7,973 bases of DNA from a virus (Duplodnaviria > Heunggongvirae > Uroviricota > Caudoviricetes). Positions 1,859-4,993 of this stretch are shown piece by piece. The stretch spans positions 1 to 7,973 of IMG/VR virus record IMGVR_UViG_2645727743_000016. The stretch is one strand, 5' to 3'. The translations under genes were made by a program, and so were the position numbers. The notes under the pieces are model-generated. The model did no database searches, was not told the DNA's origin, and saw only the letters and a list, made by a program, of their open reading frames with translations. The stretch's first letter is position 1. Every line of letters begins with the position of its first letter.

Positions 1859-2119
1859 TCACTCATCTTCAAAAGCAGAAAAACCAGCCTTAATCTCAGC
1901 TTCTTTCAGAGACGGCAACGATGTGACAAATTCATTTGCACGCAAAATAAAACCATCCGTCACAAGCCCATCCACCAAATGAATTAACGCAGCTCCACTC
2001 TTCCTTTGTTGAGACTGTAAACATTTAATACGGCAGTGGCTGACAATTGCGCCATTCTCAACGCGCACAGTATAGAGGCCATCTTCACTAAAAATTTCAC
2101 GTAATTCTTTGATTTTCAT
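1859..2119 (-). CDS. Hypothetical small phage protein (86 aa), rem-like position relative to hok and ydfU
   Basis: ATG at 2117-2119 with AAGGA about 9 nt upstream on the minus strand (the ORF track begins one codon earlier at a TTG). Sits between the Doc cassette terminator and the DUF968 gene. Identity not recognised; the rem comparison is positional inference only. Confidence 0.55.
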   Translation of the reverse strand: MKIKELREIFSEDGLYTVRVENGAIVSHCRIKCLQSQQRKSGAALIHLVDGLVTDGFILRANEFVTSLPSLKEAEIKAGFSAFEDE

Positions 2120-2200
2120 CAACAGAATCCTTCCAGATAAATAGCACTCCCCTGTTTGGGGTCCATCCCTCTTCTCCCTGCGCGCTACTTAAGTGCATCG

Positions 2201-2228
2201 ATTCTAGTCAGGCATACCAGCTAATCAA
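2201..2228 (-). promoter_or_regulatory. Candidate sigma70 promoter for the downstream minus-strand genes (86 aa, 92 aa, DUF968, rusA)
   Basis: Minus-strand reading: TTGATT, 16-nt spacer, TAGAAT (plus-strand 2223-2228 and 2201-2206). Lies just downstream of the strong terminator at 2270-2305 and about 80 nt upstream of the ATG at 2119. Sequence pattern only. Confidence 0.3.
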
Positions 2229-2269
2229 CAAACCCTGGTCGGTTAAATAGAAGAATTGGCTAAAATTTA

Positions 2270-2305
2270 GTCCATTAAAATAAAAAACCCGCCGAAGCGG
2301 GTTTT
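2270..2305 (-). terminator. Rho-independent terminator downstream of the Fic/Doc gene (hairpin is symmetric, potentially bidirectional)
   Basis: AAAACCCGC-cgaa-GCGGGTTTT perfect 9-bp stem at 2284-2305, followed on the minus strand by TTTTTTATTTTAA. Located 15 nt after the Doc stop at 2320. Confidence 0.65.
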
Positions 2306-2319
2306 CATTGGAAGCACCT

Positions 2320-2805
2320 TTAGTTTTGCTGTTCTATTTTAAGCTTGATAGTTTCATACAAAACAATAGTTGCGCTTGTTTTACATAATTCCCGGCTGTC
2401 ATACGCGCGAGACCAATAACACAACCAGTTCTCGAGATCTTCTCGAGTATAGGTTTTGCAGGCCAGTCCCTCTGCCATTTCCACGATTTCATCGCCTGGT
2501 GCTGTTAACTCATAGCCATTCAACAACAAGAAGACGTAACCAGCCATCATAGCTGTTCGTTTGTTCGCATTAGCAAACGGATGATTCTGAATCAGACTTT
2601 CAATCAATACCGATGCCAGTACAAACATGTCATTAGTCTGTTCATACCATCGAACCATGCTGGGACGGGCCTGAGAAGAACTTAAGTTATCTGGACTCAG
2701 AACACCAACGGGCTCATCTGGCGTCTGTAATTCAATTAGGGAATGATTGATTTCAACAAGATCATCAACCGTAAGGTAATGCACTCCTTCAACAATCTCA
2801 GCCAT
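2320..2805 (-). CDS. doc: Fic/Doc family toxin (death-on-curing-like)
   Basis: Translation contains HPFANANKRTAMMAGYVFLLLNGYEL, matching the Fic/Doc motif HxFx(D/N)(A/G)NKR. ATG at 2803-2805 (the ORF track starts 3 codons earlier at a TTG, 2814). Small partner gene ends 18 nt upstream. Confidence 0.82.
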   Translation of the reverse strand: MAEIVEGVHYLTVDDLVEINHSLIELQTPDEPVGVLSPDNLSSSQARPSMVRWYEQTNDMFVLASVLIESLIQNHPFANANKRTAMMAGYVFLLLNGYELTAPGDEIVEMAEGLACKTYTREDLENWLCYWSRAYDSRELCKTSATIVLYETIKLKIEQQN

Positions 2806-2823
2806 AGAGTACAATACCCATCA

Positions 2824-3003
2824 TTACACTTTTGAAAGTTCTTCCATGGCTTTCTCATAACGAGAAAAACCGAAATCAAAAGCATTTTTCACTTGTTCAC
2901 GATGTGCGCAGTTTTCATCAATCACTGGGCGAGGGACTGCCACAACGCTTTTATCGCGAGGCGGAATACTCAACCGCGTGTGTTTTTTGAGTGGGCAGCT
3001 CAT
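2824..3003 (-). CDS. Putative antitoxin partner of the Fic/Doc toxin (59 aa)
   Basis: ATG at 3001-3003 with AAGGA about 8 nt upstream; the ORF track's longer 75-aa form starts at TTG 3051. Small gene immediately upstream of the toxin is the canonical type II arrangement. Sequence family not recognised. Confidence 0.5.
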   Translation of the reverse strand: MSCPLKKHTRLSIPPRDKSVVAVPRPVIDENCAHREQVKNAFDFGFSRYEKAMEELSKV

Positions 3004-3119
3004 ACTAATGAGTCCTTTTGTTTTCCGATTATTGGCAAAGCCATGCACCAAATTTGATACAAAATAGATCTGTTTGAGATCCTTAGGATAGTCTCATGGT
3101 AGCTAAAATTACAACCTCA

Positions 3120-3150
3120 TAATGCGACGAAAAACCCGCCGAAGCGGGTT
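3120..3150 (-). terminator. Rho-independent terminator downstream of hok (hok mRNA 3' hairpin)
   Basis: CCCGC-cgaa-GCGGG hairpin at 3135-3148 with AA/TT extension, followed on the minus strand by TTTTTCG. Lies about 70 nt after the hok stop. The 21-bp core (3130-3150) is identical to 2283-2303. Confidence 0.6.
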
Positions 3151-3218
3151 AAGTGCGGGTGCGTTGAGGATGCCTGACACATCAGAGGCGGCGAGGGATT
3201 TCTCCCCCGCCGGGTCTC

Positions 3219-3374
3219 TTACTCCTCAGGTTCGTAAGCTGTGAAGACAGCGACCTCCGTCTGGCCGGTTCGGATTCGTACCTCGCAGAGGTCTTTCCTC
3301 GTTACCAGTGCCGTCACTATGACGGTTAAACAGATGACGATAAGGGCGATTAACATCGCCTTTTGCTGCTTCAT
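3219..3374 (-). CDS. hokD: Hok/Gef family type I toxin (51 aa), HokD/RelF-like
   Basis: Translation MKQQKAMLIALIVICLTVIVTALVTRKDLCEVRIRTGQTEVAVFTAYEPEE matches HokD/RelF as I recall it (not searched). ATG at 3372-3374 with AAGGAG about 10 nt upstream. An in-frame upstream ATG at 3429-3431 would give a 70-codon form. Confidence 0.88.
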   Translation of the reverse strand: MKQQKAMLIALIVICLTVIVTALVTRKDLCEVRIRTGQTEVAVFTAYEPEE

Positions 3375-3633
3375 AGCCTGCTTCTCCTTGCCTTTCGGCA
3401 CGTAAGAGGCTAACCTACATGTGTTCAGCATGGATTGAGCCTCAGATTAATGTTAAGCGTCTTGCAGGACGCGTAATGTTAACTGGGGCTTTTCTCTATC
3501 TGCCTTTTGGTGTTCATGCCTGAGACAGATAGCCTCAAGCACCCACAGTCATTCTACTTAACTAAGATTTCCCTGCAAACCGTTTTTGTCCGGCACAGTA
3601 AATATCCAACTAAACCAATAGCGTTCGCTGTAT

Positions 3634-3813
3634 TTACCGCCAGTATTCAATGCACGTGACCGCCATGAACACCCCTAAAAAAAGGGCATTTATATGTCCA
3701 AACATTAATATCAAAACATCAATTTTTTCCATATACCTTGCTGTGAAGATGATGGGCATACATGATGCGAACAACCAGAACGCAACAAACAAAAACTGCA
3801 ATGCGTTTTTCAT
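3634..3813 (-). CDS. Possible small hydrophobic (membrane) protein, 59 aa, in an AT-rich island
   Basis: ATG at 3811-3813 with GGGGGA about 5 nt upstream; the ORF track's 72-aa form starts at GTG 3852. Translation is strongly hydrophobic (LQFLFVAFWLFASCMPIIF...ALFLGVFMAVTCI). AT-rich sequence gives long ORFs by chance on both strands, so the call is weak. Confidence 0.3.
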   Translation of the reverse strand: MKNALQFLFVAFWLFASCMPIIFTARYMEKIDVLILMFGHINALFLGVFMAVTCIEYWR

Positions 3814-4024
3814 TATTCCCCCTACAATCAATGTGCAATTACATTTAAACACACCTCAATTTGGCCGGACATATAAATATCTAAACCAGAAAAAATCACT
3901 TACATAGCGTTACAAACTCTTTAGTCTAAATATTCATCGTAAAACATTCCCCATACTTATCAGCCCACTCTACGCCAGGTAGCTCATTGCCTTATCTGGG
4001 AATCTGTAATCAGGTTTCCGTTTT

Positions 4025-4447
4025 TCAGTCGGCTGGTCGTTTAACCGGCATAGTTAACCCATTAATCTGGTTGCCGGATGCTGGTGGATTTTCGCGTTTT
4101 AGTTGTTCATAAAAGTGCACAGCTTTAACCAGTTCTTCTGATGTAACAGGGACTGGTGGGGCAGTGAATAAGGCCTGAATTTCATAGTTCGGCCTGTCGT
4201 TACAATCCTCTTTTTTCGGTACATATTTCCAGTCACCAACCCACAACTCCCCCTGAGAGTCCATAACACCTTTTTTCACGTAGCGATATCGCCACGCTAT
4301 CGGCTCTGCTTCCAGCGATGCCAGTGCAATTTTGAATAACTCGCCCTCTACTCGCGCCATCCCTGAATTGGGGTGGCATTTCGTAATCGCTATTTTTAAT
4401 TTGGCTTCTTCGATTAATTGTTCTTTTGTTAATTCAGTCATTTTCAT
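4025..4447 (-). CDS. Hypothetical phage protein (140 aa)
   Basis: Two in-frame ATGs at 4445-4447 and 4439-4441 (MKM), with AAAGGG about 7 nt upstream and AGGAGG further upstream. No recognisable motif. Confidence 0.6.
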   Translation of the reverse strand: MKMTELTKEQLIEEAKLKIAITKCHPNSGMARVEGELFKIALASLEAEPIAWRYRYVKKGVMDSQGELWVGDWKYVPKKEDCNDRPNYEIQALFTAPPVPVTSEELVKAVHFYEQLKRENPPASGNQINGLTMPVKRPAD

Positions 4448-4537
4448 TACCGCCCTTTCAGGCGGCCTCCTGATGTTCTGAGGGTGCAGAAATCCCTCCG
4501 GTTAAGGATTAAATTTTATTTGCTGTGCTAAATTTAA

Positions 4538-4993
4538 TTATTCAGTTTTTATTCCTGCTCTCAAAACAGCCTCTGCCATTCTGATATCCGGATTTTCTGA
4601 AATCATCTTTTCCGGCGAGTCGCAATCACCACCACATTCAGTTATGCGTTCATGACCAAAACGAATTGTGGTTTTGTGCGCATTAATCATTTGTGTAAGC
4701 GCGTCTGTCAATTCTGCAATGCGTTTATCTTTAACTTCCAGCTCTTTCAGTAAAGCCAGTACGTCAGGATCGCTAACATCAACGACGGTTACGCGCGATT
4801 TCAGGTAATGCTCATCCGCAAAAGTTCGACCAGTTTTAAAATATCCATCATCCCCCTCACCTGCGCAGGCATACACAATATGCGTTCTGGAAAATATGCG
4901 CTGTATCGACATTTCATCGCCGCAAACAGGACATTCCGGCACCTGAATTGGTGAATAACGTTCACGTAATGCCTGGTAATTAGTCTTGCACAC
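4538..4993 (-). CDS. Hypothetical phage protein (151 aa) with paired-Cys motifs and a central coiled-coil-like segment
   Basis: GTG at 4991-4993 with AGGAGA about 7 nt upstream; overlaps the upstream gene's 3' end by 14 nt. Contains ECPVCGDE and ECGGDCDSPE pairs flanking LALLKELEVKDKRIAELTDALTQMI. Family not recognised. Confidence 0.6.
   Translation of the reverse strand: MCKTNYQALRERYSPIQVPECPVCGDEMSIQRIFSRTHIVYACAGEGDDGYFKTGRTFADEHYLKSRVTVVDVSDPDVLALLKELEVKDKRIAELTDALTQMINAHKTTIRFGHERITECGGDCDSPEKMISENPDIRMAEAVLRAGIKTE

Follow-up and report, generated by a model that had tools for sequence, protein, structure and literature searches.

A probable 59-codon membrane-protein gene beside hok in lambdoid prophages of Escherichia coli

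Introduction

Small accessory proteins of the inner membrane that are carried by prophages, often called morons, are exemplified by HK97 gp15 and T4 Imm. Short accessory genes also lie between the replication genes and Q in phage lambda (ninA–ninI), and to our knowledge these nin genes are not annotated as membrane proteins. A further class of small hydrophobic products is formed by the type I toxins, most of which are under about 55 aa in length. Among them, Hok has one helix, and chromosomal hok loci are often inactivated by IS elements.

Here, we describe a stretch of DNA next to such a hok locus. The whole sequence analysed (7,973 nt, hereafter the window) represents the early-right/nin-type region of an E. 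coli lambdoid (Qin/Rac-like) prophage, in which every gene is encoded on the minus strand. An earlier note, made from the letters of the window, had described positions 3634–3960 as an AT-rich island with a small hydrophobic open reading frame (ORF), typical in composition of horizontally acquired cargo, and had suggested that the region could equally hold a regulatory RNA or DNA silenced by H-NS. We re-examined this stretch using comparative analysis of related loci, complete E. coli genomes, protein and RNA family searches, and structure prediction.

Results

The AT-rich stretch and its genomic setting

In minus-strand order the region begins with a YdaT-like gene, an O-like replication gene, a DnaC-like ATPase gene, DUF977 and DUF4406 genes, an Ea22-like gene and a gene of phrog_660. 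After the AT-rich stretch the order continues with hok/mok/sok, a Doc/Fic cassette, a rem-like gene, ydfU (DUF968) and rusA. The stretch does lie where it had been placed, between a block of hypothetical genes and hok (Table 1). The hok/sok leader matched Rfam family RF01794 with 118.9 bits and the neighbouring hok matched the Hok/Gef profile (PF01848 / NF007279) at 3e-23 (81.6 bits). The chromosome of ATCC 43886, like those of several other strains, is 100% identical to the window over positions 3560–4030.

The Doc/Fic cassette (1.26 kb, window 1859–3051, minus strand) sits between hok and the rem-like gene, and encodes a 75-aa phrog_2208 protein, which is likely the antitoxin, a 164-aa Fic/Doc-like toxin (PF02661, phrog_577) and an 87-aa phrog_340 protein. 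With this cassette beside hok, the window holds two adjacent toxin modules. The cassette is missing from ATCC 43886 (L001), which is otherwise identical across the AT-rich stretch.

Table 1. Features in and around the AT-rich stretch, in window coordinates
Feature	Position	Strand	Remarks
Small ORF, 59 aa + TAA stop, MKNALQFLFVAFWLFASCMPIIFTARYMEKIDVLILMFGHINALFLGVFMAVTCIEYWR	3634–3813	-	Predicted two-helix membrane hairpin
Shine-Dalgarno-like AGGGGGA	3817–3823	-	3 nt 5' of ATG
True intergenic spacer 5' of the small ORF, 121 nt, GC 0.31	3814–3934	-	
Decayed 3' tail of upstream gene	3935–4024	-	3935–3960 lie inside the AT-rich stretch
Upstream gene, truncated 140-aa allele, phrog_660 (function unassigned)	4025–4447	-	
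Spacer from small-ORF stop to hok mRNA start	3545–3633	-	hok promoter-like site inside
hok/mok/sok module	3219–3544	-	Rfam sok 3369–3544, mok from 3431, hok CDS 3219–3374
Opposite-strand 85-aa ORF, judged a shadow frame	3650–3907	+	
A7 homopolymer (T7 in the coding strand) inside the small ORF	3677–3683		

Calculation bore out the AT-richness of the stretch. The GC content of 3634–3960 is 0.355, the minimum of all 327-nt windows across the 7973-nt sequence (mean 0.478, sd 0.051), with 0.09% of windows as low as this value. A 200-nt GC profile reached its minimum of 0.34 at 3701–3900 and fell to 0.37 at both 2201–2400 and 4501–4700, hence the stretch is the deepest dip in the window but not a unique one. 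The A/T-rich run quoted in the earlier note was found at approximately 3677–3729, within the small ORF and on its antisense strand.

The base composition of the small ORF explains much of this dip. Its GC content is 0.38, and 0.33, 0.30 and 0.52 at the first, second and third codon positions respectively, with T making up 50% of second positions; a GC3 of 0.52 is close to that of typical E. coli genes. The low GC of the ORF therefore results from its hydrophobic codons, in which positions 1 and 2 are low and T fills half of the second positions, and the low GC of the stretch as a whole is a by-product of these codons together with an ordinary AT-rich spacer of 121 nt. An AT-rich dip can thus merely reflect hydrophobic coding sequence. 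Acquired cargo with a foreign composition does not fit a GC3 of 0.52 and a low GC that is limited to codon positions 1–2 and the spacer. Neither does the stretch extend as one island, as its upper end (3935–3960, on to 4024) derives from the 3' end of the upstream gene, now shifted out of frame. Positions 3634–3960 are a composite of three parts (small ORF, spacer and tail) and not a single foreign island.

The decay of the upstream gene is visible by comparison with other haplotypes such as L104, where the intact gene is 171 aa long and ends ...KKAQPDCKLPEKAMDYLKRNGLISVEDVLR* at the equivalent of window ~3935. The window allele is cut short at 4025 (140 aa), and a second frame still gives EKRKPDYRFPDKAMSYLA*SGLISMGNVLR*. 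The 3935–4024 tail is the most polymorphic part of the region, with ~38 variable columns in ~85 nt. The phrog_660 gene is also broken in the commonest haplotype (L134).

A 59-codon frame is conserved across three lineages

The minus-strand ORF can be read as 3634–3852 (72 aa from GTG) or 3634–3813 (59 aa from ATG). The 59-aa hydrophobic ORF with its GGGGGA motif, as pointed out in the earlier note, stood up as a real feature, with frame, length, start and stop common to three lineages. The motif is present on the minus strand (3822–3817), although not at the 5-nt spacing that had been given, as 3 bases (ATA) intervene between it and the ATG at 3813; counted from the last G of GGGGGA, the distance is four bases.

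The three lineages comprise the window type, a TA280 type (L007:4580–4759; 84% nucleotide and 76% amino acid identity to the window ORF) and a B2-remnant type (L164:4001–4180; 59% and 44%, respectively). The ORF is exactly 59 codons long in each of them, the aligned start and stop are the same and there are no indels. Ratios of dN/dS were 0.34 (window vs TA280), 0.18 (window vs B2 type) and 0.22 (TA280 vs B2). When substitutions were placed at random, an open frame with as few amino acid changes was obtained in 0.1% of trials for window vs TA280 (P = 0.001) and in 0.005% of trials for window vs B2 type (P = 5e-5). No frame besides that of the small ORF is open across all three lineages, and tblastn detected the B2-type copy with E ~1e-16 at 44% protein identity, the DNA being only 59% identical. 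The selection tests draw on three lineages, the small-ORF family being tiny and of narrow taxonomic range. A further 47% match (L006) was left out, its assembly being ridden with indels.

A Shine-Dalgarno-like motif precedes the ATG in every lineage, namely AGGGGGA in the window type, GGGGGGA in the TA280 type and AGGGA with a 6-nt spacer in the B2 type. A polymorphism at position 3820 turns it into a perfect AGGAGG in 10 of 25 window-type haplotypes. Of 149 complete loci on viral and metagenome contigs, 147 had the 59-aa frame intact, although retrieval of this set by protein similarity favours intact copies. The B2-type copy was intact at every inspected locus but one, an error-prone draft assembly (L162). 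Frameshift variants of 55 aa and 83/84 aa, arising at the T7 run, occur in the protein database, many of them from Logan assemblies; none was seen among the 149 loci examined. These could be sequencing errors or rare slippage.

At shallow depth the picture is different. All seven polymorphisms within the ORF among 25 closely related window-type haplotypes (A16V, I31V, M37I, H40Y, A43V, T53M and Y57C) are nonsynonymous, and none is synonymous. Most of the changes are conservative, and against a neutral expectation of ~4:1 nonsynonymous to synonymous changes a 7:0 ratio has P ~0.2 in this small sample. The pattern still argues against strong constraint at shallow depth. Judged by the comparisons above, purifying selection on the predicted protein is shown to act between lineages, and we consider it very probable that the small ORF is a real gene under selection at the protein level.

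The 72-aa form from the GTG at 3852 was rejected as the main product. Its extension carries no codon-position bias (3, 2 and 2 changes; dN/dS 0.62), is out of frame and interrupted by a stop in the B2 type, and has no properly spaced Shine-Dalgarno motif.

The opposite-strand ORF is a shadow frame

An 85-aa ORF on the plus strand overlaps the small ORF (Table 1), and is annotated in phage records (L002, L003) as 'hornerin' (ON470612.1 and ON470619.1) or as a hypothetical protein (PV340562.1). This ORF is open in the window and TA280 types with a dN/dS of 0.30, a low value which follows from third codon positions being shared with the minus-strand frame. It contains two stops in the B2-type copy, the most diverged lineage, its length varies (85, 63 and 60 aa) and no Shine-Dalgarno motif was seen by eye 5' of either ATG. 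Given these stops, variable ends and the lack of a visible Shine-Dalgarno motif, the plus-strand ORF is interpreted as a shadow and the minus-strand 59-aa ORF as the gene.

The predicted product is a helical hairpin

Kyte-Doolittle analysis divided the 59-aa product (GRAVY 1.15) into two hydrophobic segments, roughly residues 4–25 and 33–55, separated by a short polar loop, and this pattern is present in all three lineages. The AlphaFold2 model of the window protein comprises helices at 2–25 and 30–58 which form a helical hairpin (mean pLDDT 74.5). The N terminus is basic (MK, MRK), as is the C terminus, which ends WR, and the loop varies from uncharged overall to strongly acidic (AEEMEEVD in TA280). 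Following the positive-inside rule, both ends of the protein are thus probably cytoplasmic, and we infer that it would insert into the inner membrane as an N-in/C-in hairpin. Invariant residues of the family include W13, S17, C18, P20, T24, G39, G47, E56 and W58. A Foldseek search of the model against BFVD returned only non-specific helical hairpins (best E = 0.57).

Distribution and annotation

The small ORF was found in 1,568–1,569 of 5,426 complete E. coli genomes (~29%). The 44%-identical 59-aa paralogue (MRKILMYLCISIW...ECWR), which constitutes the B2 type, was detected in 1,045 of the 5,426 (another ~19%). This paralogue is found between the ttcA and uspF genes, within the remains of an old prophage in the Rac attachment region (L164, at the coordinates above, and also L161, L163, L166 and L167), and its carriers include Nissle 1917, UTI89 and an ST131-type strain. 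The integrase, DUF1627 gene, hok and permease gene of the remnant are all pseudogenes, and the paralogue is intact.

No RefSeq/PGAP feature covers the small ORF in the 40 genomes sampled, and it was uncalled in every one of ~70 RefSeq genomes overall. The paralogue is also unannotated in the RefSeq genomes sampled. In GenBank and UniRef the small ORF appears as 'hypothetical protein' or 'membrane protein' (e.g., A0A0J2DWW3_ECOLX), with named homologues all from Escherichia/Shigella and one record of a Klebsiella oxytoca plasmid. The latter, a 9.5-kb record (NZ_CP069920.1), carries the ORF at 8758–8934 with 96.6% protein identity.

Searches of Pfam, NCBIfam, PHROGs and the anti-phage defence models of PADLOC (PADLOC-DB 2.0) gave no match for either paralogue, and a profile search of the PDB returned nothing. 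Deeper searches of 5.8 billion proteins (word-indexed) and of 1.84 billion representatives (HMMER profile) returned only the small-ORF family; a 1066-aa match in these searches was judged spurious. A full-text literature search for peptide strings found no mention of them.

The small ORF and hok are probably separate modules

Every copy of the small ORF that we found, in all three lineages, is directly 5' of hok or of a hok remnant. Among 121 loci with enough flanking sequence, hok was intact in 84 and missing in 36. Homology to the window ends at 3373 in the hok-missing haplotypes, one base into hok, and the small ORF stays intact. This is the commonest haplotype (L002, L005, L063–L085 and others), and in PhiR42_1 (L002) IS/transposase genes come next. 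In the B2 remnant, hok is reduced to a fragment of 22 codons located 55 nt downstream of the paralogue.

The hokD-type module was located 12,150 times, in 4,938 genomes, vs ~1,630 times for the small ORF, and ~87% of hokD-type hok copies have no small ORF. Between the window and TA280 types, identity is 84% in the small ORF and ~97% in hok. The discordant divergence of the ORF and hok, and the many hok copies without the ORF, indicate a separate mosaic module that has travelled with hok. Phage vB_EcoM-606R7 (L170) has hok but no small ORF, and its hok homology starts at window 3587, which is the hok -35.

Other genes occupy the same position elsewhere. An unannotated 27-aa hydrophobic ORF (MTWPEAFTTVGIAMAVALVVYSICRWG) is present at L170:~3914–3997 (vB_EcoM-606R7, ON470580), with a perfect AGGAGG Shine-Dalgarno sequence, and its start overlaps the stop of the preceding gene in an ATGA. 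The end of this 27-aa ORF coincides exactly with the beginning of homology to the hok module; the ORF is unrelated to the 59-aa ORF despite sharing its position, and had no Pfam or PHROG match. In K-12 Qin (NC_000913.3 1,645,119–1,645,872; L168), relBE is 5' of hokD in place of the small ORF and the hok/sok leader, and neither this Qin hokD region nor the Rac end, the two K-12 stretches that we checked, yielded a small-ORF homologue.

Promoter, terminator and RNA signals

A crude scan of the coding strand gave no confident sigma-70 promoter 5' of the small ORF. The sequence TGnTTAAnT, a poor -10, is invariant across lineages at ~30–38 nt 5' of the ATG. The same scan, a weak negative, found no coding-strand promoter-like or terminator-like site in 3634–3934 or just downstream. 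A hok promoter-like site (TTTGCA-17-TAGAAT) is present at 3579–3551, directly 5' of the Rfam hok/sok leader match, and no terminator was found between the small ORF and this promoter. The small ORF shares its orientation with the early-right/nin-type operon (cro-like, O, DnaC-like P ... phrog_660), hence it is most likely co-transcribed with it.

No plus-strand promoter-like site was found in 3150–4150 with a consensus scan, which a weak promoter could escape. The sole plus-strand terminator-like hairpin, at 3997–4020, was considered as the end of an antisense RNA. We rejected this reading because the hairpin falls within what is left of the 3' coding sequence of the upstream gene and lacks conservation, with many of its positions changed in 11 of 25 haplotypes. 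The suggestion of a regulatory RNA in the stretch found no backing: with Rfam 15, searched at both gathering and permissive thresholds, the only match was to sok (3369–3544), sub-threshold matches were snoRNA noise, the fold of the spacer had a z-score of -0.63, and the consensus fold had no covariation support (covariation term +0.4).

Discussion

A probable gene for a prophage membrane protein

Taken as a whole, the stretch probably contains a genuine minus-strand coding gene for a prophage membrane protein. Translation would start at the ATG at 3813, using the AGGGGGA/AGGAGG ribosome-binding site, and the 59-residue product would fold into a hydrophobic two-helix hairpin, inserted in the inner membrane with both ends in the cytoplasm. 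Transcription may occur mainly with the early-right operon of the prophage, possibly with the addition of a weak promoter of its own. The gene would be a mosaic module distinct from hok/sok, whose homology block begins at 3587, and would have been inherited beside hok in every lineage. Its product may be an accessory, moron-like membrane protein with the host envelope as its target, for instance excluding superinfecting phages or modulating a host membrane protein. We regard such an accessory role as an evenly balanced prospect, and any specific activity that might be assigned to the protein as unlikely to prove right.

Were the stretch non-coding, an AT-rich spacer possibly bound by H-NS or holding a regulatory RNA, the ORF would be a chance open frame. 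The lowest GC in the window, the absence of a PGAP annotation and of family matches, and within-lineage polymorphisms that are all nonsynonymous would be in keeping with this, but frame, length, start, stop and Shine-Dalgarno motif are conserved at 59% nucleotide identity, dN/dS is 0.18–0.34 with simulation P values of 0.001 or below, and GC3 is 0.52 vs 0.30 at position 2. An RNA is likewise opposed by the missing Rfam match, the fold z-score of -0.63 and a consensus structure without covariation support, making a non-coding stretch highly improbable. It is scarcely credible that the plus-strand 85-aa ORF (3650–3907) is the actual gene, even though it is open in two types at a dN/dS of 0.30 and annotated in PV340562, ON470612 and ON470619. 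The low ratio is expected of an antisense frame sharing third codon positions with a real gene, and the two stops in the B2 type, an end that varies between 85, 63 and 60 aa, the lack of a Shine-Dalgarno motif seen by eye 5' of either ATG and an orientation opposed to all other genes in the region speak against it.

Two further alternatives accept the minus-strand ORF and link it to toxin systems. A second type I toxin beside hok, with an antisense RNA of its own, would be small, very hydrophobic (GRAVY 1.15), unannotated and prophage-borne as this ORF is, adjoining a known type I system, and the plus-strand hairpin at 3997–4020 resembles a terminator. Yet that hairpin is not conserved, being altered in 11 of 25 haplotypes, and belongs to the decayed end of the upstream gene, no plus-strand promoter-like site and no conserved 5' UTR structure were found, a two-helix product of 59 aa is longer than most type I toxins, and the B2-remnant copy persists intact without any detectable partner, so that a second toxin is very unlikely. 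The small ORF might instead work with hok, either by encoding a partner in the membrane or an immunity factor, or through transcription that reads on from this upstream ORF and adjusts hok expression. The position of every copy directly 5' of hok or its remnant in all three lineages, and the missing terminator between the ORF and the hok promoter, are what this arrangement would lead one to expect. Against it, ~87% of hokD-type hok copies lack the small ORF, the ORF is intact where hok has been cut at its start by an IS (36 of 121) or deleted to a 22-codon fragment, and the divergence of the two is discordant between the window and TA280 types (84% vs ~97%). The chance of a functional tie to hok is accordingly very slim, and the small ORF seems to have no part in how Hok works.

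Beyond the membrane-protein gene as such, its origin invites speculation. The gene could be young and restricted to Escherichia, having arisen de novo from T-rich spacer DNA by hok and been retained for a function at the level of the host. This is a rather doubtful proposition, and if true, it would explain the intact copy in the otherwise decayed ttcA–uspF remnant of phylogroup-B2-type strains. In a bolder variant, the 59-aa protein would serve Hok as its partner in the membrane or provide immunity to it; if true, the hok locus would be a three-component system.

Carriers of the two paralogous copies include the well-studied strains Nissle 1917, UTI89 and ATCC 25922. Recognising the ORF would be a gain for annotation, given that RefSeq omits it from the sampled genomes and that two phage records place the gene on the wrong strand. 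For researchers of small proteins, it offers a conserved, predicted two-helix membrane protein to be considered in phage exclusion, envelope effects and interplay with Hok.

Comparison with known systems

Like morons, the small ORF is small, strongly hydrophobic, prophage-borne, non-essential in appearance, patchy in related prophages and located between functional modules; both mEp460 and vB_EcoM-606R7, the latter of which also has hok, carry the upstream-gene family and lack the small ORF. Unlike morons, no promoter or terminator of its own was found and its base composition is not foreign. It has no sequence similarity or significant fold similarity to any viral protein (best E = 0.57 in BFVD) and no PHROG. 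In being AT-rich relative to its flanks (GC 0.355 vs a mean of 0.478), the stretch resembles islands silenced by H-NS.

With Hok/Gef (PF01848) it shares the character of a small hydrophobic membrane peptide, the strand and the prophage region. The 72-aa ORF had no Pfam/NCBIfam match at E <= 1, this family (PF01848 / NF007279) included. It differs from Hok in its two helices (AlphaFold2) and in the absence of a mok/sok/fbi architecture and of a detected antisense RNA. The resemblance to type I toxins in general extends to its 59 aa, GRAVY of 1.15 and two hydrophobic segments. Holins and pinholins of the two-TM class II differ in location, since the small ORF is 5' of rusA and the Q region rather than in a lysis cassette, and it matched no PHROG lysis family.

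As in the nin region of lambda (ninA–ninI), we see a short accessory gene, variably present, in the early-right operon between the replication genes and Q; no homology to the lambda nin genes was detected. SMP7, from a preprint on small proteins of CFT073 (10.64898/2026.09.28.754932), maps elsewhere, to the microcin island. The small ORF is also similar to the E. coli small membrane proteins found by Ribo-seq (in K-12 and CFT073) in being intergenic by annotation, shorter than 100 codons, predicted to have transmembrane helices, narrowly distributed in E. coli/Shigella and T-rich in its coding strand. From the comparisons made here, the predicted protein represents a new, very narrow family of a familiar kind of gene.
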